The translations under genes were made by a program, and so were the position numbers. A stretch of 64,000 nt of DNA from positions 134,665 through 198,664 of the forward strand of contig JAFYKY010000012.1 in NCBI GenBank assembly GCA_017537345.1, read 5' to 3'. This document shows positions 3,303 through 62,689 of the stretch, piece by piece. Below the pieces are notes generated by a model. It saw nothing but the letters and a program-made list of their open reading frames with translations, searched no databases and had not been told where the DNA came from. Each line of letters begins with the position of its first letter. The stretch's first letter is position 1. The stretch is from Clostridia bacterium (lineage in GTDB: Bacteria; Bacillota; Clostridia; Oscillospirales; CAG-382).

Positions 3303-3309
3303 ATAAAAC

Positions 3310-3339
3310 AAAAAGAGCAGACATCGTCTGCTCTTTTTT
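3310..3339 (+). terminator. rho-independent terminator (A-tract / hairpin / T-tract)
   Basis: AGAGCAGAC (3314-3322) atc GTCTGCTCT (3326-3334) followed by TTTTTT. A near-identical hairpin occurs at 35735-35755. Confidence 0.7.
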
Positions 3340-3442
3340 AATGATGAACCCACCCCAAAAACGCGTGGCGTTTTCGGGGAACCCCGGGAATGAGGAATGA
3401 TGAATGATGAATGTCGGTAGTTTTTTGCGTAACGCAAAAAAC
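3338..3442. repeat. modular repeat (inverted H2 hairpin + heptamer array + module-A hairpin)
   Basis: TTAATGATGAA terminus. CCCCAAAAACGC-gtg-GCGTTTTCGGGG (3353-3379) with CGGGGAACCCCG palindrome. Heptamers AATGAGG AATGATG AATGATG AATGTCG (3389-3416). GTTTTTTGCG-taa-CGCAAAAAAC (3420-3442). Confidence 0.85.
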
Positions 3443-3458
3443 AAATACAATTATTGGC

Positions 3459-3585
3459 GGGACGATAGGGATATCGTCCCCTACGATTATCGAATAGCCG
3501 TGGCTGTTCGCAGACCGTAGGGGACGATGTCCCCACCTGCACCCCACAAAACCTGCGGTTTTGCGGGGAACCCCGCCGTCGTCCC
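3459..3585. repeat. REPIN-like inverted REP doublet; right REP has an H2 module nested in its loop
   Basis: Left REP is GGGACGATA-ggga-TATCGTCCC followed by CTAC (3459-3484). 32-nt linker GATTATCGAATAGCCGTGGCTGTTCGCAGACC. Right REP is GTAG (3517-3520) followed by GGGACGA ... CGTCGTCCC (to 3585), with an inverted H2 at 3539-3574 inside. The same doublet and linker occur at 52205-52288. Confidence 0.85.
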
Positions 3586-3711
3586 GCAAACTGTTCGCAC
3601 GAAACTAATGTCTGTTGCATCGAAAAAGCAAGTTTTTGAAGTGAGCGATGGCAGAATGACGCGTAGAAAAACGCAAAAAAATAAAATCCTTTTTAAGGAT
3701 TTTTTCCTAAT

Positions 3712-3749
3712 AAAAAACAAAAGGCGAGAGATATATTTAAATCTCTCGC
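3712..3749 (-). terminator. rho-independent terminator downstream of cysK (bidirectional hairpin)
   Basis: GCGAGAGAT (3724-3732) / ATCTCTCGC (3741-3749) with T-tracts on both strands. A second hairpin AAATCCTT/AAGGATTT lies at 3684-3702. Confidence 0.6.
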
Positions 3750-3788
3750 TTTTCTTATTTTTTTATTTCGTGCGTTTTTCGTTCTGCG

Positions 3789-4769
3789 TTATTCTGTCGA
3801 GCGAAAGCGCAAAAAATTGGGGCAGCTTAAATACCTTTCTCCCGTATCGGGTAAAAGCACTACGATGGTTTTTCCCTCGTTTTCCTGCTTTTTTGCCTCT
3901 CGTACGGCGGCGCAAAGGGCGGCGCCGGAGGAAATTCCCGCCAGTATTCCTTCTTTTTTTGCAAGCAGGCGGGCGTATTTAAAGGCTTCCTCCTCGGTTA
4001 CCGTTTCCACCGTATCGTAAACGGAGGTATCCAGCACATCGGGCACAAATCCCGCGCCGATCCCCTGCAAGCCGTGAGCGCCTTTTTTGCCTCCCGAAAG
4101 CACGGGGGAGCCTGCAGGCTCAACGGCGACTACCTTGGTTTTCGGGTTTTTCTCTTTTAAAAATCTTCCCGTGCCGGTAATGGTTCCGCCGGTGCCCACG
4201 CCGCACACAAAAATATCCACGTTTCCGTCGGTATCTTCATATATCTCTCTGCCCGTGGTATCAAAATGGGCTTTGGGGTTTGCGGGGTTGGTAAACTGCC
4301 CCGCAATAATACTGCCCTTTATCTCTTTCAAAAGCTCGTTTGCTTTTGCGATCGCGCCGTCCATCCCATCGTTTGCGGGGGTAAGCACAAGGGAGGCGCC
4401 GTAGGCGGAAATAAGCATTTTTCTTTCTTCCGACATATTTTCGGGCATAACGATAATGCATTTGTACCCCCTCACGGCGCAAAGCGCGGCAAGACCTATA
4501 CCCGTATTACCCGAGGTAGGCTCGATAATCACCGTGTTTTTATTGATGATACCTGCCTTTTCGCCTTCGTCCAGAATACTTTTCGCTACTCTGTCCTTGG
4601 CGCTTCCGCCGGGGTTAAAGGATTCAAGCTTTGCAATAACGCGGCAGTTGAGCGAAAGCTCTTTTTTTATGTTGTTAAGCTCCAGAAGGGGAGTGCCGCC
4701 TATGAGAGCGTCTGCTCTCTGATAAATTTTTTCCATATTATTCCTGAGCAAATCTGCTGTAATATTCAA
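3789..4769 (-). CDS. cysK: cysteine synthase A (O-acetylserine sulfhydrylase)
   Basis: 326 aa. GGTPLLELN, KLESFNPGGSAKDR, PTSGNTGIGLA. Alternative start ATG at 4736, 1 nt after the upstream stop, is plausible. Confidence 0.9.
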   Translation of the reverse strand: MNITADLLRNNMEKIYQRADALIGGTPLLELNNIKKELSLNCRVIAKLESFNPGGSAKDRVAKSILDEGEKAGIINKNTVIIEPTSGNTGIGLAALCAVRGYKCIIVMPENMSEERKMLISAYGASLVLTPANDGMDGAIAKANELLKEIKGSIIAGQFTNPANPKAHFDTTGREIYEDTDGNVDIFVCGVGTGGTITGTGRFLKEKNPKTKVVAVEPAGSPVLSGGKKGAHGLQGIGAGFVPDVLDTSVYDTVETVTEEEAFKYARLLAKKEGILAGISSGAALCAAVREAKKQENEGKTIVVLLPDTGERYLSCPNFLRFRSTE

Positions 4770-7227: not shown

Positions 7228-7255
7228 TTGAATTTATGCAAAAATGTGCTATAAT
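7228..7255 (+). promoter_or_regulatory. strong extended -10 promoter driving the large ncRNA
   Basis: TTGAAT (7228-7233), 16 nt, TGcTATAAT (TG 7247-7248, -10 at 7250-7255). No ORF or RBS follows. Confidence 0.65.
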
Positions 7256-7261
7256 AAATGA

Positions 7262-7882
7262 GCGATGGCGCAGTATTCTAGTTAGCGCGGCGTTTTTGAA
7301 GGCGTGCCTAAAAATACGTCAAACGGCAAATCGATGAAGCTCCTGGTGTTTGCTTTGTACGCCCAGTTCAGGGTGGATGCTGGGAGAGTGGACTGTGGGC
7401 GCACCCCAACGGCATGGGGCGGCTACCCCACTTTCCTTTGAGGCTTTTTCTTCGTGGCGGACCTACACAAACAAAAAAAGGGGGCTACGGGATTAAGATT
7501 AAACCTATCACGCGGTACGACCATTACAGATGCTGTGGATAGATGTAGCCGGCTTTGAGTGGGTCATGGCGGATAACGTTCATGTCGGGGTGAGATTAGC
7601 TACCGAACCCCGAATAAATCGCGTTTGAAATCATGCCTGCAAAAGAAGATAAGAAAACGTTTTGCGCTATGGCGGAAAACGCCTAGACTGTTATCGTGGC
7701 AGATAAACACGTATGGGCACGGTGCGGATTACAGTGCGGACTCATAGGCAATCAAGTCGCGGAACCGGTAACGCTCCGCCTCGGTCTTTAATGGGGAACC
7801 CCTTCATCGGCGACGAGAAGGAGACCGCGGGGAAATCCTACTTGACCGTAAGCCGCAAGGTCTACGTACCGTGCCGCCATTA
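7262..7882 (+). ncRNA. large structured ncRNA, probable OLE (ornate, large, extremophilic) RNA
   Basis: About 620 nt directly after a strong promoter. The only ORF of 60 aa or more is 7713-7916 (67 aa, no RBS). Visibly more G+C-rich than the AT-rich 7100-7255 region. Helices: ATGGCG 7265-7270 / CGCCAT 7875-7880; GGCACGGT 7716-7723 / ACCGTGCC 7868-7875; CGGGGT 7586-7591 / ACCCCG 7607-7612; GCGGA 7759-7763 / TCCGC 7775-7779; CCTCGGTC 7779-7786 / GACCGCGG 7823-7830. Synteny with the oapA-like/dxs/tlyA/nadK/argR/recN cluster. Class not verifiable without a covariance-model search. Confidence 0.55.
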
Positions 7883-7883
7883 T

Positions 7884-7990
7884 TATTCACCCCACAAAAG
7901 GTTTTTTGGCGAGTAGGGGCGTTTCACGAAACGCCCGCAACAGACAAAACATATCACGAAAAAACGCTTTTGCGGGGACCCCGAAAATAT
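7884..7990 (+). repeat. composite element X: inverted H2 hairpin split by an insert carrying a REP variant
   Basis: H2 arms CCCCACAAAAGG (7890-7901) and GCTTTTGCGGGG (7966-7977). Inside is GTAG followed by GGGCGTTTC/GAAACGCCC (7913-7938). A ~90 percent identical copy lies in reverse orientation at 42020-42125. Confidence 0.85.
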
Positions 7991-8227
7991 CAAACAGACA
8001 GTGGGAGCGCGTTCATTCGGCGCAGAAGACACCCCACAAAACTTGCGTTTTGCGGGGACCCCGTGAACCAAAAACGCAAAAACACACTCAAATGTTTCGA
8101 AAACCGTAGGGGACGACGTCCTCGTCGTCCCGCACACCACAAAACATACGGTTTTGCAGGGAACCCCGAAAATATCAAACAGACAGTGGGAACGCATTTT
8201 AGGGGTGGGTTCCTCATTCCTCATTAA
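7991..8227. repeat. REP/H2 mosaic (BIME-like)
   Basis: REP GTAG GGGACGACG-tcct-CGTCGTCCC (8106-8133). Inverted H2 copies at 8032-8057 and 8134-8168. 28-nt direct repeat CCCCGAAAATATCAAACAGACAGTGGGA at 7979-8006 and 8164-8191. Terminal heptamers TTCCTCA TTCCTCA then TTAA (8210-8227). Confidence 0.85.
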
Positions 8228-8241
8228 AAACGGTGGTAAAT

Positions 8242-8706
8242 ATGGTAAAAAACATTTTAAAATATTCCCTGTTTGGATTGACGGCGTCTTTTGCTTTTGC
8301 GGCTTTTACGATCTATCTGCTTGAGCCGAGAGAAAAACTTATCTCGGAACTGCCTAGGTATTGGCAGGTCATCTGGTTGGTGTTGCTTAATATCGTGGGA
8401 ATCTTTTCTCATTTCGCCGCAAGATTTAGCATTCCCCTTGTTGCCCGCGTATCAAAAAAATACAAAAAAGCACCCGTTATATTTTTGGCGGTGTTTGTAG
8501 TTATCGTGTTTGTTCTTTCCGGCGGAAAATACGGCGCCAGACACGGAAGAGGACTGTTTTTTATAATGCACGAAACGGCGGGCATAACTTCGGTTGCCGC
8601 GCTTGATATTATTTTGTTTTTCTTCATAATGCTGATCTCATATTTCGTTATTTGTGTTGTTACGGAATTCAAAAAAACGGAAAAAACAAAAAATGACAAA
8701 CAATAA
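8242..8706 (+). CDS. small polytopic membrane protein (about 4 TM), function unknown
   Basis: ORF 8233-8706. ATG at 8242 is preferred (GGTGG 5 nt upstream). Hydrophobic helices throughout. The 3' end overlaps the RAYT start by 14 nt. Confidence 0.5.
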   Translation: MVKNILKYSLFGLTASFAFAAFTIYLLEPREKLISELPRYWQVIWLVLLNIVGIFSHFAARFSIPLVARVSKKYKKAPVIFLAVFVVIVFVLSGGKYGARHGRGLFFIMHETAGITSVAALDIILFFFIMLISYFVICVVTEFKKTEKTKNDKQ

Positions 8707-9370
8707 ACCACCCCTCCCCAAACGTAAAAACACCCGCTGGGACAAGCAGGACTACTCCCACCCCGGCGAATATATGATAACTGTCTGCACAAAGGATATG
8801 AAACAGATATTATCGAGAATAACCGCCGGTAACCCGCAAACCGTAGGGGACGATATCCCTATCGTCCCGCACCACGTAAACGCACAAACCGTAGGGGACG
8901 ACGTCCTCGTCGTTCCGCACCCCACAAAACCTGCGGTTTTGCAGGGAACCCCGACCGTCCCGCATATCGAACTCACATATTTCGGAAAAATTGCGGATAA
9001 ATATATAAACCAATTAAACGATTTCTACGATAACATCAACGTAATAAAATACGTTATAATGCCGAATCATATACATTTGCTGTTGCAGATACCGGACGGG
9101 ACGACGAGGACGTCGTCCCCTACGAAAACAACTGACGGAACTAAGTGCGAAATCACGCCGTCCCCTATGGGTGAGCGAACAGACGCACGACCCGTTGAAC
9201 ATTCGATAATATCGGATTTTATTTCAACTTTCAAACGTTTCGTTCACCGCGATATCGGCGAGCAGATTTTTCAGCGCTCATATCACGATCACGTTATACG
9301 GGACGAAAACGATATGATCGGGGCTATAAATTATATAGAAAATAATCCACACAGATGGATAGAAAATTAA
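8693..9370 (+). CDS. REP-associated tyrosine transposase (RAYT; IS200/IS605 TnpA-like Y1 HUH enzyme) with in-frame REP insertions
   Basis: Start at ATG 8693 (MTNNKPPLPKRKNTRWDKQDYSHPGEYMITVCTKD). HUH motif VIMPNHIHLLLQ. C-terminal QRSYHDHVIRDENDMIGAINYIENNPHRW. Segments VGDDIPIVP, VGDDVLVVPHPTKPAVLQGTP and GTTRTSSPT are translated repeat hairpins. Confidence 0.8.
   Translation: MTNNKPPLPKRKNTRWDKQDYSHPGEYMITVCTKDMKQILSRITAGNPQTVGDDIPIVPHHVNAQTVGDDVLVVPHPTKPAVLQGTPTVPHIELTYFGKIADKYINQLNDFYDNINVIKYVIMPNHIHLLLQIPDGTTRTSSPTKTTDGTKCEITPSPMGERTDARPVEHSIISDFISTFKRFVHRDIGEQIFQRSYHDHVIRDENDMIGAINYIENNPHRWIEN
8843..8963 (+). repeat. two tandem REPs plus inverted H2 module inside the RAYT coding frame
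   Basis: GTAG GGGACGATA-tccc-TATCGTCCC (8843-8870). GTAG GGGACGACG-tcct-CGTCGTTCC (8891-8918). CACCCCACAAAACCTGCGGTTTTGCAGGGAACCCCG (8918-8953). Partial stem ACCGTCCCGC (8954-8963). Confidence 0.85.
9096..9124 (-). repeat. inverted REP inside the RAYT coding frame
   Basis: GGGACGACG-agga-CGTCGTCCC followed by CTAC (9098-9123). 27 nt identical to the reverse complement of the intergenic REP at 8106-8133. Confidence 0.85.
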
Positions 9371-9372
9371 AT

Positions 9373-9520
9373 TGTGAAGAGAGAAAAGAGAAGAGTGGAA
9401 AGAAACGGAAGATTTTTGCGTAATACGCAAAAATCAACCATAATTCCCGGGGTTCCCCGAAAACGCTGTGCGTTTTTGGGGTGGGTCATTCATCATTCCT
9501 CATTCCTCGTTCCTCATTTA
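9373..9520 (+). repeat. modular repeat (purine heptamers + module A + H2 + pyrimidine heptamers)
   Basis: GTGAAGA GAGAAAA GAGAAGA GTGGAAA GAAACGG (9374-9408). GATTTTTGCG-taata-CGCAAAAATC then AACCAT. CCCCGAAAACGC-tgt-GCGTTTTTGGGG. TCATTCA TCATTCC TCATTCC TCGTTCC TCATTTA (9486-9520). Near-identical copy at 15653-15795. Confidence 0.85.
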
Positions 9521-15632: not shown

Positions 15633-15650
15633 TACAATCACGGGTTTTTA
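15621..15650 (+). terminator. rho-independent terminator of recN
   Basis: CCCGTGA (15626-15632) tacaa TCACGGG (15638-15644) then TTTTT. Overlaps the recN stop codon. Confidence 0.75.
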
Positions 15651-15652
15651 TA

Positions 15653-15795
15653 GTGAAGAGAGAAAAGAGAAGAGTGAAAAGAAACGGAAGATTTTTGCGT
15701 ATTACGCAAAAATCAACCATCCCGGGGTTCCCCGCAAAACCGCAGGTTTTGTGGGGTGGGTCATTCATCATTCATCATTCCTCATTCCTCATTAA
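15653..15795 (+). repeat. modular repeat (same composite as 9373-9520)
   Basis: GTGAAGA GAGAAAA GAGAAGA GTGAAAA GAAACGG. GATTTTTGCG-tatta-CGCAAAAATC then AACCAT. CCCCGCAAAACC-gca-GGTTTTGTGGGG. TCATTCA x2, TCATTCC x2. Ends in TTAA (15792-15795). Confidence 0.85.
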
Positions 15796-15825
15796 AAAAC
15801 GCCGCCTTTTTGGCGGCGTTTTTTA
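15794..15825. terminator. bidirectional rho-independent terminator
   Basis: AAAAAACGCCGCC ttttt GGCGGCGTTTTTT. Serves the convergent minus-strand operon ending at 15823. Confidence 0.75.
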
Positions 15826-19202: not shown

Positions 19203-19285
19203 TTAATGAGGAATGATGGTTGATTTTTGTTCTGCGAACAAAAATCTTCCGAAGTTTCTCGTTTCTCGTTTATCGTTCCTCGTTT
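19203..19285. repeat. modular repeat (module A inverted) overlapping the pyrR 3' end
   Basis: TTAATGAGG AATGATG. ATGGTTGATTTTTGTTC-tgc-GAACAAAAATCTTCCGAAG (19216-19254). Heptamers TTTCTCG TTTCTCG TTTATCG TTCCTCG (19255-19282). The pyrR TAA (19270-19272) lies in the third heptamer. Confidence 0.85.
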
Positions 19286-21215: not shown

Positions 21216-21352
21216 GAACGAGGAACTGGGAACTAGGAACTTCGGAAGATTTTTGCCCCAAAGGCAAAAATCAACCATTCCGGGGTTCCCCGCAAAACCG
21301 CAGGTTTTGTGGGGTGGTTAGTTCATAGTTCATCGTTTATCGTTCATCGTTC
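21210..21352 (+). repeat. modular repeat (full composite) between the mgsA-like gene and hisS
   Basis: AACTAGG AACGAGG AACTGGG AACTAGG AACTTCG (21210-21244). TTCGGAAGATTTTTGCC-ccaaa-GGCAAAAATCAACCATT. CCGGGGTTCCCCGCAAAACC-gca-GGTTTTGTGGGGTGG (21280-21317). AGTTCAT/CGTTCAT-type heptamers to 21352. Confidence 0.85.
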
Positions 21353-35764: not shown

Positions 35765-35802
35765 TTCGGGGTCCCCGAGAAGCCGCAAGGCTTCTTGGGG
35801 TG
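35765..35802 (+). repeat. H2-type hairpin module (variant)
   Basis: CGGGGTCCCCG palindrome plus CCCCGAGAAGCC-gcaa-GGCTTCTTGGGG (35773-35800), with the family-typical G:T at stem position 5. Confidence 0.75.
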
Positions 35803-39331: not shown

Positions 39332-41893
39332 TTATTCCACCATTTTCTTAATTTCGTAAAGTATTCCCATCGCTTCTATGGGGGTAATGGTATTTATATC
39401 CGTATTCTTTAATTTTTCCTTCATGTTTTCCCAGGACATATCAAAAAGTGTAAGCTCGGCTTCTTCCTCAACATCCTTTTTGATAACGGGAGCAGAAACG
39501 TGCTCGGTAATATCCTTAAGTATCGCCTTTGCACGGTTTACCACAGAAGCAGGCACTCCCGCAAGGGACGCTACCTCGATACCGTAGCTGTCCGAAGCGT
39601 GGCCTTTTACTATCCTGCGCAGGAAAATAATATCGTTGCCTCTCTTTTTTGCGGCAATATTGTAGTTTACCACGCCATCCTGCATACCCTCAAGCTCGGT
39701 AAGCTCGTGGTAATGGGTGGCAAAAAGGGTGCGGGCTTTAATCTTTTCCGCAGTATGCTCCACCACCGCACGGGCAATAGACATACCGTCGTATGTGGAG
39801 GTGCCTCTGCCTATCTCATCGTATACGATAAGGCTCTTTTTGGTGGCGTTTGCAAGAATATTTGCCACCTCACGCATTTCCATCATAAAGGTGGAGGTAC
39901 CGCCGGAAAGATCGTCGGATGCGCCTACACGGGTGAAAATTCTGTCCACCACGCCGATCCGCGCGCTTTCCGCAGGGACAAAGCATCCCGCCTGCGCCAT
40001 AAGCACAATGTCCGCTACCTGACGCATATAGGTGGATTTACCTGCCATATTCGGTCCCGTTATAATGTGCAGACGGGAGGAGGACGTGTTAAGCAGGCAA
40101 TCGTTGGGTACAAAATAACTGTCACCGCAAAGCTTTTCCACTACGGGATGTCTGCCTGCTTTAATATCTATAATATCGGAAACGTCCACTTCGGGACGGG
40201 TGTATCCGTTTTCCTCCGCCACCTTGGCAAGAGTGGAGTAAACGTCCGCCTCCGCAATGGCTTCTGCCGTTTTGCGCAAAAGGTTAATGGATGCGTTTAC
40301 GTAGGTAACCAGCCCCGTAAACAGCTCTGCTTCCAGCGCGTACAGTCTGCCCTTGGCATTTATTACCCTGCTTTCCATTTCCTTAAGCTCTTGGGTAACG
40401 TACCTTTCCTTGTCCGCCAGAGTCTGTCTGCGGATATACCCTTCGGGTACGCTTTCAGATGCAGACTTGGGAACTTCTATGTAATATCCGAAAACTCGGT
40501 TGTATCCTACTTTAAGTGTTTTTATGCCGGTCTGCTCCCGTTCATTACGTTCAATACGGGCAAGCCAGCTTTTACCCCCGTCAAGAATTTCACGCAGCTC
40601 GTCCACTTCCTTGTGGGCTCCCTTGCGTATAACGCCGCCCTCCTTGTAAACCACGGGGGGATCATCGTCTATGTATTTTCCAATACTTTCGCAAACGTCG
40701 GCAAGGGGGTTGATCTCTTTTTGTATGCGCTCAAGCTCGGGTGAAGAAAACGCAGATAATATCTGCTTTATTTCAGGGAAACGGCGCATAGACATTTCCA
40801 AAGATTTCAAATCTCTGGGGTTTGCGCTTCCGTACGCCACGCGGGAGGAAAGACGCTCGAGGTCAGAAACCTTGGCAAGCTCATCCCGCAGGCTATCTCT
40901 GCTTTGTCTGTCTTTAAAAAGCTCTGCCACGCCGTCAAGACGGGCGTTTATCATATTGGGGTCAAGAAGGGGAGCTTCTATCCTTCTGCGCAGAGCGCGG
41001 GCGCCCATAGCCGTTTTGGTATCGTCAAGCACCCACAAAAGAGAGCCTCTCTTTTCACGGCTGTAGGCAGATTCCGTAAGCTCCAGATTTTTTCTGGAAA
41101 AGGAATCAAGCTGTAAATACAAAGTGGGGTCGTAAAAATTAATATCCTTAACAAATTTAAGGTCAAGCTTTTGGGAACTGCGCAAATGATTAATAAGCGC
41201 GCCTGCCGCCGTGCAGGCAAGGGGCAGTTTTTTTGCCGTATCGTTTCCCGTAACGGAAAAAACCTCCTCGAATGCAGTTTCAAATTTATAAAGCGAAGTG
41301 TTTACTGCAGTTATACGTGCGCCGAATCTGTCTGCGATCGCCTGCTTTAAATCGGATGCGCCGTAAACCAAGGCTTCCGTAGGACAGTATGCGGCGGTTT
41401 CGGAAAGCAGCAGCGCCTTTGCATCTCTGCCGGTAAACTGGCAGGCGGAAAAGGTTCCGGTAGAAACGTCCGCGTATGCGGCGCCGCAGCCTTCTTCTGT
41501 GTTATATACGGAAAGTATATAATTGTTTTTTTCTTTGGGGAGATATTCGCTTTCGGTAACCGTGCCGGGGGAGATGACCCGAATTACCTCACGCTTTACA
41601 ATTCCCTTAACGCTTTTGGGGTCTTCCATCTGCTCTGCCACGGCAACTCTGTACCCCGCCTTTATAAGACGGTGAATATAGCTGTCCGCCGCGTGGAAGG
41701 GAATACCGCACATAGGCGCTCTCTGCTCTTCACCGCAATCTCTGCCGGTAAGCACTATATCCAGCACCTTGGATGCAGTTATAGCGTCCTCGTAAAACAT
41801 TTCATAAAAATCCCCAAGGCGGAACATAAGTATGCAATCGGGATTTTCCTGCTTTACCTGTAAATATTGCTTCATCATGGGTGAAAGAGCCAT
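39332..41893 (-). CDS. mutS: DNA mismatch repair protein MutS
   Basis: ATG 41893 preferred (GAGAGGAG RBS; MALSPMMKQYLQVKQENPD). The 33-codon upstream ORF extension is translated repeat sequence. GPNMAGKST, DEIGRGTSTYDG. Confidence 0.95.
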   Translation of the reverse strand: MALSPMMKQYLQVKQENPDCILMFRLGDFYEMFYEDAITASKVLDIVLTGRDCGEEQRAPMCGIPFHAADSYIHRLIKAGYRVAVAEQMEDPKSVKGIVKREVIRVISPGTVTESEYLPKEKNNYILSVYNTEEGCGAAYADVSTGTFSACQFTGRDAKALLLSETAAYCPTEALVYGASDLKQAIADRFGARITAVNTSLYKFETAFEEVFSVTGNDTAKKLPLACTAAGALINHLRSSQKLDLKFVKDINFYDPTLYLQLDSFSRKNLELTESAYSREKRGSLLWVLDDTKTAMGARALRRRIEAPLLDPNMINARLDGVAELFKDRQSRDSLRDELAKVSDLERLSSRVAYGSANPRDLKSLEMSMRRFPEIKQILSAFSSPELERIQKEINPLADVCESIGKYIDDDPPVVYKEGGVIRKGAHKEVDELREILDGGKSWLARIERNEREQTGIKTLKVGYNRVFGYYIEVPKSASESVPEGYIRRQTLADKERYVTQELKEMESRVINAKGRLYALEAELFTGLVTYVNASINLLRKTAEAIAEADVYSTLAKVAEENGYTRPEVDVSDIIDIKAGRHPVVEKLCGDSYFVPNDCLLNTSSSRLHIITGPNMAGKSTYMRQVADIVLMAQAGCFVPAESARIGVVDRIFTRVGASDDLSGGTSTFMMEMREVANILANATKKSLIVYDEIGRGTSTYDGMSIARAVVEHTAEKIKARTLFATHYHELTELEGMQDGVVNYNIAAKKRGNDIIFLRRIVKGHASDSYGIEVASLAGVPASVVNRAKAILKDITEHVSAPVIKKDVEEEAELTLFDMSWENMKEKLKNTDINTITPIEAMGILYEIKKMVE

Positions 41894-41924
41894 AAAAATA
41901 ATCTCCTCTCGAACAAGTTCGTTT

Positions 41925-42125
41925 TTAACGATGAACGATGAACGATAAACGATGAACTTCGGAAGCTTTTTGCACGGCTGTGCAAAAAGCAACCATTAGT
42001 TCATAGTTTATAGTTCATAGTTTTTTTCGGGGTCCCCGAGAAAGCGTTTTTTCGTGATATGTTTCGTCTATTGCGGGCGATTCGTGAATCGCCCCTACTC
42101 ATCAAAAAACCTTTCTTGGGGTGAA
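41925..42125. repeat. compound repeat inside the ymcA-mutS intergenic region
   Basis: TTAACGATG AACGATG AACGATA AACGATG AACTTCG. TTCGGAAGCTTTTTGCAC-ggct-GTGCAAAAAGCAACCATT (41958-41997). AGTTCAT AGTTTAT AGTTCAT. Then element X in reverse (42020-42125) with REP variant GGGCGATTC/GAATCGCCC followed by CTAC (42075-42098). Confidence 0.85.
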
Positions 42126-42127
42126 CA

Positions 42128-42520
42128 TTAATGGCAGCCGCCGCAAGCAGAGCAATCCCCGCCGCAAGAATGCTGGCTTTCGGGAATAACTCTGGACTGG
42201 ATCTCGGAATTAAGCACGTTAAGAAGCTCGTTAAGCTCGTTTTCCGCATTTGCAAGAGCAACCATAACGGGGTTAGCCATAACCTCTTCGTAAAGCTCCT
42301 TCATACGGTTGTCGATCTGCTTAAGCAGCTCTTCGTCCTTGTTTTCGTCTGCCGCAGCCTTTTCATATATCATACGCTGTACGGTGTATTCGTTGATCTT
42401 GGTGGAGAGGGTATCGTCGTTATCAAAGTTTTCCTTTGCCGCTTTGTAGTTAATAACTACCTCGTCCTGTTCAATAGCGTCTGCCAATGCGAGAATGGCG
42501 TTTTTTGTGGTTTCGTTCAT
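42128..42520 (-). CDS. ymcA: YlbF/YmcA-family regulatory protein with Cys-rich tail
   Basis: 130 aa helical protein in the conserved position between miaB and mutS. C-terminus is CGGDCSACGGCH. Confidence 0.65.
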   Translation of the reverse strand: MNETTKNAILALADAIEQDEVVINYKAAKENFDNDDTLSTKINEYTVQRMIYEKAAADENKDEELLKQIDNRMKELYEEVMANPVMVALANAENELNELLNVLNSEIQSRVIPESQHSCGGDCSACGGCH

Positions 42521-44689: not shown

Positions 44690-44785
44690 TTAACGATGAA
44701 CTATGAACTATGAACGATGAACTATGGTTGATTTTTGTTCTGCGAACAAAAATCTTCATTATTTTTCTTCGTTTATTCATCACTT
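44690..44785. repeat. modular repeat in a divergent promoter region
   Basis: TTAACGATG AACTATG AACTATG AACGATG AACTATG (44690-44726). ATGGTTGATTTTTGTTC-tgc-GAACAAAAATCTTC (44724-44757; 34 nt identical to 19216-19249). Degenerate pyrimidine heptamers follow. Confidence 0.85.
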
Positions 44786-51860: not shown

Positions 51861-51933
51861 TCACTCGGTAAAAGCACTGTAGAACAAAAACGCAAATAAT
51901 TGTATATAGTTCTGTGCAGCTAATTCCCACAAT

Positions 51934-51960
51934 GTAGGGCGGGTGGCTTGCCCCCGCCGC
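51934..51960 (+). repeat. REP variant (GTAG + GC hairpin)
   Basis: GTAG GGCGGG-tggcttgc-CCCGCC (reads tGTAGGGCGGGTGGCTTGCCCCCGCCGC). Confidence 0.6.
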
Positions 51961-51982
51961 TTTAATAACAGAATAAGGTAAA

Positions 51983-52020
51983 AATTCGGTAGAAGTAAAC
52001 CTCTACCGAATTCCTTTTTA
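51983..52020 (+). terminator. rho-independent terminator candidate downstream of the oxidoreductase gene
   Basis: AATTCGGTAGA (51983-51993) / TCTACCGAATT (52002-52012), an 11-bp perfect stem followed by a T-rich tract. Confidence 0.55.
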
Positions 52021-52076
52021 TTTTGCGTTTTTTAAAGGCTTTCGCTTCGCTGGCTGTAGGTTACTACAGCTCCCGA

Positions 52077-52110
52077 CGGGGTCCCCAAAAATGCACGCAT
52101 TTTTGGGGTG
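52077..52110. repeat. H2-type hairpin module (perfect-stem variant)
   Basis: CGGGGTCCCC then CCCCAAAAATGC-ac-GCATTTTTGGGG (52083-52108). Confidence 0.75.
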
Positions 52111-52204
52111 CCATATCCCGCTCGCGAAAGACCTTTTCTACAGCGTTTTACCTTCGCTCTCGCTCGGTCATCGAATAGACGATAGTGTAGTGCGAACAAA
52201 TTAC

Positions 52205-52288
52205 GGGACGATGAGGACATCGTCCCCTACGATTATCGAATAGCCGTGGCTGTTTGCAGACCGTAGGGGACGTCGTCCCCGACGTCCC
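52205..52288. repeat. REPIN-like inverted REP doublet
   Basis: GGGACGATG-agga-CATCGTCCC followed by CTAC (52205-52230). The same 32-nt linker as 3485-3516 with 1 substitution. GTAG GGGACGTCG-tccc-CGACGTCCC (52263-52288). Confidence 0.85.
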
Positions 52289-52307
52289 GTAACAAAATAA
52301 AAATGTA

Positions 52308-53577: not shown

Positions 53578-53680
53578 GTTTTTTGCCTCGCAAAAAACTA
53601 CCGAAATTCCCGGGGTTCCCCGCAAAACCGCAGGTTTTGTGGGGTGGGTTCCTCATTCATCATTTATCATTCATCATTAA
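53578..53680 (+). repeat. modular repeat (module A inverted + H2 + heptamers)
   Basis: GTTTTTTGC-ctc-GCAAAAAAC then TACCGAA. CCCGGGGTTCCCCGCAAAACC-gca-GGTTTTGTGGGGTGGG. TTCCTCA TTCATCA TTTATCA TTCATCA TTAA (to 53680). Confidence 0.85.
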
Positions 53681-54941: not shown

Positions 54942-55037
54942 TTAACGATGAACTATGAACTATGAACTTTGGAAGATTTTTGCCCTTGTGGGCAAAAATC
55001 AACCATTAGTTTCTCGTTCATCGTTCCTCGTTCATAG
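54942..55037. repeat. modular repeat between the MATE and M48 genes
   Basis: TTAACGATG AACTATG AACTATG AACTTTG. TTGGAAGATTTTTGCCC-ttgt-GGGCAAAAATCAACCATT. AGTTTCT CGTTCAT CGTTCCT CGTTCAT. Confidence 0.85.
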
Positions 55038-62584: not shown

Positions 62585-62689
62585 TTAATGATGAACTATA
62601 AACTATGAACTTCGGTAGCTTTTTTCGCGAATAAACGCGAAAAAAGGTTTCCATTCGTTCCTCGTTTCTCGTTCCTAGTTCCTCGTTAA
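62585..62689. repeat. modular repeat, CGCG subfamily, between carB and pyrK; bounded by TTAA
   Basis: TTAATGATGAACTATAAACTATGAAC. TTCGGTAGCTTTTTTCGCG-aataaa-CGCGAAAAAAGGTTTCCATT. CGTTCCT CGTTTCT CGTTCCT AGTTCCT CG TTAA. Termini TTAATGATGAACT and TTAACGAGGAACT are inverted repeats. Confidence 0.85.

Follow-up and report, generated by a model that had tools for sequence, protein, structure and literature searches.

Introduction

REP/RAYT systems, which join repetitive extragenic palindromic (REP) sequences to a REP-associated tyrosine transposase (RAYT), are among the few vertically inherited bacterial replicators, and they have been studied almost only in Proteobacteria. Published surveys assign REP-associated RAYT groups mainly to Proteobacteria, and for Clostridia they record only a group that is not tied to abundant REPs (PMC5581495, PMC6006769). 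The classical REP layout places a foot tetranucleotide 5′ of the stem (PMC8266576, PMC6006769). The E. coli enzyme TnpA-REP binds the folded, single-stranded REP through its GTAG foot and its structure, and its contact with the upper half is non-specific (PMC8266576). In the hairpins of REPINs (REP doublets forming hairpins), compensatory changes on both sides are common (PMC3116915).

Here, a 64,000-nt stretch of a Clostridia bacterium assembly (GCA_017537345.1, contig JAFYKY010000012.1), called the window and used for all coordinates, is found to carry several families of intergenic hairpins together with a candidate RAYT gene. With a probability of roughly 0.6, these hairpins (modules A, B and C, H2 and GTAG-REP) are REP-type extragenic palindromes of a REP/RAYT system, or REPtron, in uncultured ruminant-gut Clostridia, represented by Oscillospiraceae-like metagenome-assembled genomes (MAGs). 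The modules obey a simple rule: the foot is kept by sequence and the top is kept by shape.

A conserved foot beneath a covarying stem

The hairpin at 41958–41997, from which the original prediction of compensatory base changes started, lies between a mutS-like gene (39332–41896, minus strand) and a ylbF/ymcA-like gene (42128–42520, minus strand). It reads cttcggaagc-TTTTT-GCAC-ggct-GTGC-AAAAA-gcaaccat and forms the centre of a longer element:

41927–41957 (+): left heptamer array (AACGATG)x4.4, the 5′ arm of a long quasi-palindrome, called by a tandem-repeat finder
41958–41997 (+): module A copy, subfamily A2, with CTTCGGAAGC foot, T5:A5 lower stem, GCAC/GTGC upper stem, loop GGCT, and GCAACCAT
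41997–42023 (+): right heptamer array (TAGTTCA)x3.7, the 3′ arm, called by the same finder

The two arrays are complementary, with 6 bp and one mismatch in every 7 nt, and the whole 116-nt unit folds as one long interrupted hairpin on either strand (fold z-scores −7.7 and −9.1). Module A is usually centred in such a quasi-palindrome of about 100 nt with complementary heptamer-array arms. Its anatomy comprises a single-stranded foot G(A/T)AG, an invariant lower stem N-T5:A5-N′, a closing G:C pair, two to four stem positions that vary freely yet stay paired, and a loop of 3–6 nt. In the feet GGAAGN and N′CAACC, GG:CC and GN:N′C pairs flank an unpaired AA/AA, and in related loci the foot variant GGAAGC..GCAACC is invariably accompanied by the GCAC/GTGC stem.

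Three flavours share this plan: A is GGAAG(A/C)-T5-G..C-A5-(T/G)CAACCAT, B is GGTAGC-T6-CGCG..CGCG-A6-GGTTTCCAT, and C is GGTAG-T6-GCG..CGC-A6. G(T/A)AG stands directly 5′ of the stem in every hairpin class except H2, as CGGAAG in A, CGGTAG in B and C, and CCGTAG in GTAG-REP; the inner hairpin of element X, a composite described below, is footed likewise. The GT[AG]G tetranucleotide itself occurs in GTAG-REP and, as part of GGTAG, in flavours B and C; in module A its place is taken by GAAG (within GGAAG), and H2 lacks a foot of this kind.

A wider sample was obtained by scanning 185,579 species genomes for both module A feet with a free interior, which gave 100 distinct 8-kb blocks (loci numbered L). 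An unrelated single-copy locus and two single non-Clostridia matches were left out of the family. Within these 185,579 genomes the family occurs only in a small set of uncultured gut Clostridia/Oscillospiraceae MAGs, known from at least 13 assemblies, most of them from ruminants and other herbivores.

Module A copies were also detected independently of the hairpin, from the left foot and the upstream period-7 array alone. In the 100 related loci this yielded 101 module copies, and 101 of 101 carry the A-tract and at least three distal Watson-Crick pairs. From 81 flavour A copies detected in this way, an alignment of 34 distinct rows was built, in which pairing extends to 97.7% of cells and both sides have changed in five of the pairs. 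Its covariation is 0.251 versus 0.080, none of 500 shuffles reached the observed value, and no slid register comes near it. Stem pairs 17-22 and 18-21 each have at most one unpaired cell, and pair 18-21 occurs as four Watson-Crick types plus one G.U. The same holds for H2 (96.7% paired, six pairs with changes on both sides, covariation 0.405 versus 0.129) and for GTAG-REP (43 stem variants, 81.5% paired, eight such pairs, 0.479 versus 0.227), again with 0 of 500 shuffles as high in either family.

Independent variation of stem positions was looked for in this enlarged sample and was not found. The chance that the pairing pattern is a small-sample artefact, dissolving as copies are added, is therefore practically nil, since the 101 paired copies and the shuffle tests on all three families refute it. 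The original prediction held that the fold is selected, as single-stranded DNA (ssDNA) or RNA, and not the primary sequence. Its first half stands, because the fold is kept while the distal-stem sequence is free in about 140–170 copies from at least eight related genomes. Its second half needs a qualification: primary sequence is kept as well, namely in the G(T/A)AG foot, in the T5:A5 lower stem and in the closing G:C pair, and foot and lower stem are conserved in this way across at least 13 MAGs.

In the window, a mechanical scan for T5-6, a Watson-Crick stem of 3–4 bp, a loop of 3–6 nt and A5-6 returned 11 hairpins, compared with a mean of 0.06 and a maximum of 1 in 200 dinucleotide-preserving shuffles. 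The hits begin at 41967, within the copy described above, and at the starts of the following:

2447–2471 (−): flavour B hairpin with GGTAGC foot, T6, CGCG stem, A6 and GGTTTCCAT (mechanical scan)
3421–3441 (+): flavour C hairpin with CGGTAG foot, T6, GCG.taa.CGC and A6
9413–9433 (+): module A hairpin GCGT.aat.ACGC, 43 nt past the RAYT stop codon
15692–15712 (+): module A hairpin GCGT.att.ACGC, with a loop reverse-complementary to that at 9413
19224–19244 (−): module A hairpin GTTC.gca.GAAC, read from the foot strand
21250–21270 (+): module A hairpin GCC.ccaaa.GGC, within a 172-nt element that is identical in L016
22673–22696 (−): flavour B hairpin with CGCG stem (mechanical scan)
44732–44752 (−): module A hairpin GTTC.gca.GAAC; its L004 orthologue has the same centre and a different heptamer type
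54977–54998 (+): module A hairpin GCCC.ttgt.GGGC (mechanical scan)
62620–62645 (+): flavour B hairpin CGCG.aataaa.CGCG (mechanical scan)

All ten module A positions and stems first listed were recovered, except that the stems at 9412 and 15691 are 4 bp long (GCGT/ACGC) and not GCG/CGC. That list was also incomplete, having missed the hairpin at 3421–3441 and a weak copy near 53585. A module is present in 14 of the window's 22 intergenic gaps. Both neighbours were called for 136 A/B hairpin copies, and 135 of these are intergenic.

A candidate RAYT gene among the modules

The candidate transposase gene and the REP copies inside it are as follows:

8693–9370 (+): candidate RAYT/TnpA-REP gene, 225 aa from ATG, with HUH motif PNHIHLL and catalytic Tyr in NYIENNP
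8843–8916 (+): two GTAG-REP copies (8843–8868 and 8891–8916) in frame inside the RAYT open reading frame (ORF)
9098–9123 (−): a GTAG-REP copy in frame inside the same ORF, inverted relative to the 8843 copies and on the opposite side of the HUH motif

The full ORF (8654–9370, with the ATG at 8693) gave a weak Pfam Y1_Tnp hit in a scan of neighbouring ORFs, and its C-terminal motif is FQRSYHDHVIRDEND..NYIENNP. In alignment with PDB 4er8, PNHIHLL falls on the HUH motif and NYIENNP on Y115, and H81, H83 and Y135 are invariant in a 30-sequence RAYT alignment, all members of which match Pfam PF01797 (Y1_Tnp). The window protein itself scores 20.2 bits on PF01797 untrimmed and 27.9 bits without its REP-encoded inserts (cut-off 23), and it matches NCBIfam REP_Tyr_transpos with E 1.5e-14, or 3.8e-17 after the two REP-encoded inserts are trimmed. 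Searched against PDB, the 30-sequence profile finds the E. coli TnpA-REP structure 4er8 (E 3e-9) and ISDra2 TnpA (E 1e-4). Homologues number 1777; PF01797 is present in many of them, and one bears the name 'REP element-mobilizing transposase RayT'. In E. coli TnpA-REP the residues contacting GTAG are W94, Q95, E/D100, H101 and R104 (PMC6006769, PMC8266576). At these positions the pattern F/W-Q....D-H..R is conserved in the RAYT clade, with F in the window protein where its relatives have W.

RAYT is a gene at conserved chromosomal positions and is not like an insertion sequence (IS). One position follows OLE RNA and an oapA-like gene and precedes CNNM and dxs (window, L053, L104, L105, L108), another lies between recF and gyrB (L101, L106, L107), and JAGAKP has two further copies (L025, L060). 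Modules adjoin the gene in 10 of 10 RAYT loci, on both sides in L104 and L025; in L104 each side carries a GTAG-REP and a module A. About 12 of the 20 gene sides have a T/A-tract hairpin within 200 nt, compared with a background frequency of about 24%.

In-frame inverted REP hairpins also flank the HUH motif in L102 (1630 on the plus strand, 1859 on the minus strand), L025, L060, L105, L106 and L108. They encode VGxDV..P and ..TSxPT; of the 120 best homologues, 95 have HUH between these two motifs, and even a homologue of 52% identity (P0054) has the hairpin pair. The window's RAYT has an additional tandem REP and H2-like insert, and its frame is still open.

Folded DNA or folded RNA

Relative to co-directional neighbouring genes, with strands taken from a codon-usage scorer, module A lies in the same orientation 41 times and in the opposite orientation 37 times, flavour B 9 and 10 times, and H2 12 and 17 times. 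H2 is thus unbiased even though it is intrinsically asymmetric, because its first inner pair is mostly G.T (70 of 85 copies, the other 15 having A-T). Several module clusters lie between two terminators in convergent gaps, for example at 3340–3620 and 15650–15800. In Rfam 15, only OLE RNA passes the gathering score over the whole window, and at lenient E-values two module-rich stretches give only generic, sub-threshold hairpin matches.

The modules might instead act in cis at the RNA level, for example by stabilising transcripts against exonucleases, by providing RNase processing sites or by insulating translation between the genes of an operon, with RNA folding under selection. Most copies do lie between co-directional genes (78 tandem, 27 convergent, 10 divergent), whole elements are very stable on either strand (z −4 to −9), the predominant H2 G.T would be a G.U pair in RNA, and the (TGANNNN)n arms give a stop codon in all three frames. 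Secondary effects on mRNA are also known for E. coli REPs. Yet the missing orientation preference, which extends to the asymmetric H2, the copies past intrinsic terminators in convergent gaps, the lack of an Rfam family match and the free swapping of variant and orientation at orthologous sites all make this account unlikely. Intrinsic terminators are ruled out, because on either strand the T-tract precedes the stem (5′) and the A-tract follows it (3′). RNA effects explain strand-independent conservation less well than an enzyme acting on DNA does. Since orientation is unbiased, no Rfam family matches and a RAYT gene lies among the modules, the fold in question is most likely formed by ssDNA and recognised by the RAYT of the same window.

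Turnover at orthologous sites

A total of 42 orthologous intergenic sites were mapped between the window and the loci, and a site is usually filled in every species, by a different variant. The 137 orthologous A/B hairpin pairs comprise 8 identical pairs, 4 inversions of the whole centre, 2 flips of the loop alone, 15 pairs with the same stem and another loop, 62 with another stem and 46 with another flavour. Even L070, which is 96.8% identical overall, has an inverted flavour A copy at the 62620 site, where the window has flavour B. The same variants, such as GTTC.gca.GAAC and GCAC.ggct.GTGC, recur in all genomes. Because orthologous sites hold different variants, the paired differences represent a shared repertoire of perfect stems that is redistributed, and not two-step compensation in situ.

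Loops add a second pattern. Within one foot-and-stem class, reverse-complement loops occur together: GCA (23 copies) with TGC (11), TTT with AAA, CTTT with AAAG, AGTT with AACT, and in the window itself 9413 (AAT) with 15692 (ATT). Seven such variant pairs are seen against 3.6 expected (p ~0.0075). This flip-flop suggests intra-hairpin template switching or arm recombination. Template switching can produce multi-base compensatory changes and loop inversions in one event (PMC8794818), so covariation alone overstates the number of selected two-step events.

These dynamics raise the question of whether neutral processes suffice, with template switching, cruciform-associated inversion and ectopic gene conversion operating under no selection for the fold and with no enzyme. 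Loop flip-flop, in-situ loop flips and centre inversions, the ability of a single template switch to yield paired changes and a loop inversion (PMC8794818), and the extreme turnover, with 8 of 137 pairs identical, are all consistent with such a scheme. Homogenisation should, however, erase mismatches, and specific ones are kept family-wide: the invariant foot AA/AA, the H2 G.T, GTAG-REP position 7 (18 of 33 variants) and one mismatch per arm heptamer. Strand-marking irregularities on folded ssDNA are used by TnpA-REP, IS200/IS605 transposases and integron integrases (PMC8266576). The conserved sequence of foot and lower stem and the presence of a dedicated REP-type transposase associated with the modules likewise argue against purely neutral dynamics, which are accordingly judged improbable.

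A classical family of miniature inverted-repeat transposable elements (MITEs) would also scatter hairpins between genes. Here the modules would be deletion derivatives of an IS with a DDE transposase, the heptamer arrays would serve as terminal inverted repeats, and TTAA or TA would be the duplicated target. The elements do form an overall long inverted repeat of about 100–170 bp, their ends are often TTAA/TGAGGAAT or TTAA/CGATGAAC (the slash marking the element boundary), and some orthologous sites differ by presence or absence. Nevertheless, comparison of filled with empty sites reveals no clean target-site duplication, a search of 790 kb found no transposase ORF between matching arms, the modules are recombined in mosaic fashion and not as one fixed unit, and the phage and plasmid collections searched hold nothing similar. 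Candidates for an autonomous element between matching arms proved to be housekeeping genes (a tRNA synthetase, RNase Y, TrmK and an F5/8 type C domain protein). A MITE origin is thus very unlikely.

A proposed mechanism and its difficulties

If the modules belong to a REPtron, the HUH-Y1 transposase encoded at 8693–9370 and its paralogues would bind the element as a folded single DNA strand. In the foot and lower stem the enzyme would recognise the sequence, in the upper stem the shape alone, as shown for E. coli TnpA-REP, and cleavage, rejoining and propagation would be open only to copies with a paired upper stem. In this proposal the upper stem covaries because only such copies have propagated. 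Template switching within the hairpin at replication is the probable one-step source of both paired changes and loop flips, and the variants may then be moved between sites by RAYT-mediated replacement or ectopic conversion, which would leave different variants at orthologous sites in sister species. The action of RAYT on module A and the route of variant exchange are what we infer from these patterns.

Several observations weigh against the REPtron interpretation. An orientation bias is the usual trace of strand-specific ssDNA transposition, and the modules have no such bias; frequent inversion could erase it. The module A foot, GAAG, departs from the GT[AG]G consensus, and E. coli TnpA-REP tolerates no change in GTAG (PMC8266576). 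The cognate substrate of RAYT could be only the GTAG-REP flanking and inside its gene. The protein scores 54–62 bits on NCBIfam REP_Tyr_transpos, below the 80-bit equivalog cut-off, and is therefore a divergent relative; with its extra in-frame REP/H2 insertions, the window's copy may also be impaired. Adjacency of modules and gene is weak evidence where modules fill 14 of 22 intergenic gaps. Finally, heptamer arms and whole-element replacement at fixed sites are beyond known RAYT chemistry. The heptamer arms, the GAAG foot of module A and the in-frame REPs in the RAYT gene are all left without explanation by a RAYT-based account.

A more specific possibility, put forward tentatively and held to be possible rather than probable, is that this is an undescribed REPtron type of Gram-positive gut anaerobes that combines three features. 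A REP hairpin would tip a heptamer-array palindrome, whole elements or their centres, at fixed intergenic sites, would be replaced and inverted much more quickly than the neighbouring genes diverge, and the transposase gene would carry an in-frame inverted REP pair flanking HUH. That pair would then serve as an internal substrate or as a hairpin for autoregulation, and it would be conserved throughout a large RayT subfamily.

Heptamer arms, element ends and look-alikes

Heptamer arrays often have the unit TGANNNN, as at 41927–41957, 44692–44726, 54944–54968 and 62655–62687. Because 7 is 1 mod 3, three such units place a TGA stop in all three frames, whichever side the element is entered from. 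The array type, GATGAAC-like or GAGGAAT-like, can differ between orthologues with the same centre, as in the window at 44732 and L004. Elements frequently end at TTAA, in the forms TTAA/TGAGGAAT, TTAA/CGATGAAC and ..CCTCG/TTAA (for example at 41920, 54946, 62592 and 62688), and in one orthologous pair (L017 and L051) different elements start at exactly one TTAA. The TTAA may be a target, belong to the element or simply be a stop codon. Some arms contain a further hairpin module, gcgacgc-NNNN..NNNN-gc(t/g)aaatga, such as GCGACGCGATGCAAAGCATCGC and GCTCTTGCAAGCAAGAGC, found in orthologous intergenic regions of L018, L021, L010, L004 and L065, and its stems differ by paired changes as well.

The commonest four nucleotides 5′ of GGAAG are CTTC, the exact complement of GAAG, which creates the palindrome CTTC-G-GAAG; TTAC, AAAC and GTTC also occur. 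CTTC also supplies the CT dinucleotide at which E. coli TnpA-REP cleaves. By analogy with IS200/IS605, CTTC and GAAG could form a guide and cleavage-site pair.

One group of about 20 matches, T6-C[GA]CAAAC-A7, resembled a wobble-paired subclass carrying a strand marker and was rejected, since it is an unrelated single-copy locus of other Clostridium MAGs. This locus, GGAAGATTTTTTCGCAAACAAAAAAATCAACCAT, lies between tRNA genes and a small gene (L064 2409–2443 and about 20 other loci, including L008, L022, L033 and L040) in mouse and human gut Clostridium MAGs. It has both module A feet, with neither the GC upper stem nor heptamer arms; the resemblance may be a coincidence or may mark a distant relative. 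Pattern matches in Delftia and a delta-proteobacterial MAG, one each with unpaired interiors, were treated as unrelated.

H2, GTAG-REP and element X

The remaining hairpins of the window are:

9455–9481 (+): H2 hairpin CCCC-G-AAAACGC.tgt.GCGTTTT-T-GGGG, of the family for which covariation was computed
3353–3379 (−), 3542–3568 (−), 8032–8057 (−), 15730–15756 (+), 21288–21314 (+), 35773–35800 (+), 52083–52108 and 53618–53644 (+): further H2 copies
8106–8131 (+): GTAG-REP hairpin with GTAG, a 9-bp stem GGGACGACG and loop TCCT
3459–3484 (−), 51934–51958 (+), 52205–52230 (−) and 52263–52288 (+): further GTAG-REP copies
7913–7936 (+): GTAG-REP hairpin of element X copy 1, GTAG GGGCGTTTC AC GAAACGCCC
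42029–42125 (+): element X copy 2, an H2-type outer stem (CCCCGAGAAAG...CTTTCTTGGGG) around a T6/A6 stem and a GTAG-REP hairpin
42075–42098 (−): GTAG-REP hairpin of element X copy 2, GTAG GGGCGATTC AC GAATCGCCC, the same form being found five times in other loci

Each of the H2 stems first described (AAACC/GGTTT, AACGC/GCGTT, AATGC/GCATT and GAAGCC/GGCTTC) is present in the window. The double change between the two copies of element X likewise holds: 7917 has GGGCGTTTC/GAAACGCCC and 42075 has GGGCGATTC/GAATCGCCC, and each is a GTAG-footed REP hairpin. Copy 1 is inverted, at about 7890–7990, so the two copies stand on opposite strands, and their outer stems also differ by paired changes (AGAAAG/CTTTCT versus CAAAAG/CTTTTG). 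In the GTAG-REP alignment, stem position 7 of 9 (columns 11 and 20) is unpaired in 18 of 33 distinct variants, for example as G/A or A/A, and recalls the bulge needed for E. coli TnpA-REP activity.

Two long intergenic stretches, 3303–3789 and 51900–52300, are crowded with H2, flavour C, GTAG-REPs and other hairpins, resembling mosaics of the bacterial interspersed mosaic element (BIME) kind; the first is flanked by two intrinsic terminators of convergent genes. Upstream of the RAYT gene, OLE RNA (Rfam RF01071, 385 bits; 7249–7896, plus strand) is followed by a 330-nt cluster of REP modules (7890–8230; element X, H2 and GTAG-REP) and then by an oapA-looking membrane-protein ORF (8233–8706, plus strand). 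Element X adjoins the OLE 3′ end also in L104, L105 and L108.

Significance and comparison with known systems

Covariation as such is already known from REPINs (PMC3116915). What may be new is the form: a clostridial host, a GAAG foot on a T5:A5 stem, heptamer arms, very fast variant exchange and REPs inside the RAYT ORF. The literature searched holds no description of this form, and a search on heptamer-armed intergenic palindromes in Clostridia returned nothing relevant. With dozens of upper-stem variants, an invariant foot, several REP classes and two RAYT paralogues, the lineage is a compact natural experiment on how RAYT reads sequence and shape. Rapid variant swapping and REPs within a transposase ORF offer testable leads on the spread and control of such elements. 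If RAYT does drive site-specific cassette replacement, REP/RAYT would amount to continuous intergenic rewriting and not slow copy-and-drift. The family also calls for caution in covariation-based RNA discovery in metagenomes, because its strong covariation most likely reflects an ssDNA substrate and the mutational dynamics of palindromes, not a structured RNA.

Hairpin-associated loop inversions are a feature of chloroplast intergenic hairpins. Template-switch hairpins in rRNA stems resemble the modules in having both loop orientations between identical stems and multi-base paired changes that fit one event (PMC8794818), but those are single orthologous hairpins, whereas this is a dispersed repeat family. 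Integron attC sites, too, are recognised as folded single strands, keep structure while sequence is free and mark the strand with unpaired bases. Unlike them, the modules come without an integrase, a cassette array or R/L box organisation, and their neighbours are syntenic housekeeping genes. The ends of IS200/IS605 elements (IS608, ISDra2) share an HUH-Y1 enzyme acting on subterminal ssDNA hairpins, a tetranucleotide guide 5′ of the foot and the absence of target duplication. In contrast, the present system has no transposon unit with a gene between left and right ends; it has an apparently low-copy gene at conserved positions and hundreds of orphan hairpins.

REPINs of Pseudomonas fluorescens are closer, since there too a long hairpin-forming unit is the likely replicative entity and is inherited vertically with its RAYT. 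Here, however, tandem 7-nt repeats take the place of two inverted REPs in the long arms, the conserved REP-like hairpin occupies the tip and not the ends, and turnover at orthologous sites is much faster. Closest of all is the REP/BIME and TnpA-REP system of E. coli and its relatives. In both systems the palindromes are extragenic and high-copy, a conserved tetranucleotide foot precedes the stem on its 5′ side, and several REP classes are arranged in mosaics. Both also have a conserved internal mismatch in one class and a low-copy, REP-flanked HUH-Y1 gene at a fixed chromosomal place, and in both the foot and lower stem are sequence-specific while the upper half is kept by shape only. The clostridial system differs in its host, in the GAAG foot and T5:A5 lower stem of module A, in hairpins nested between heptamer-repeat arms, in the in-frame REPs of its RAYT ORF and in a RAYT that scores under the NCBIfam equivalog cut-off.

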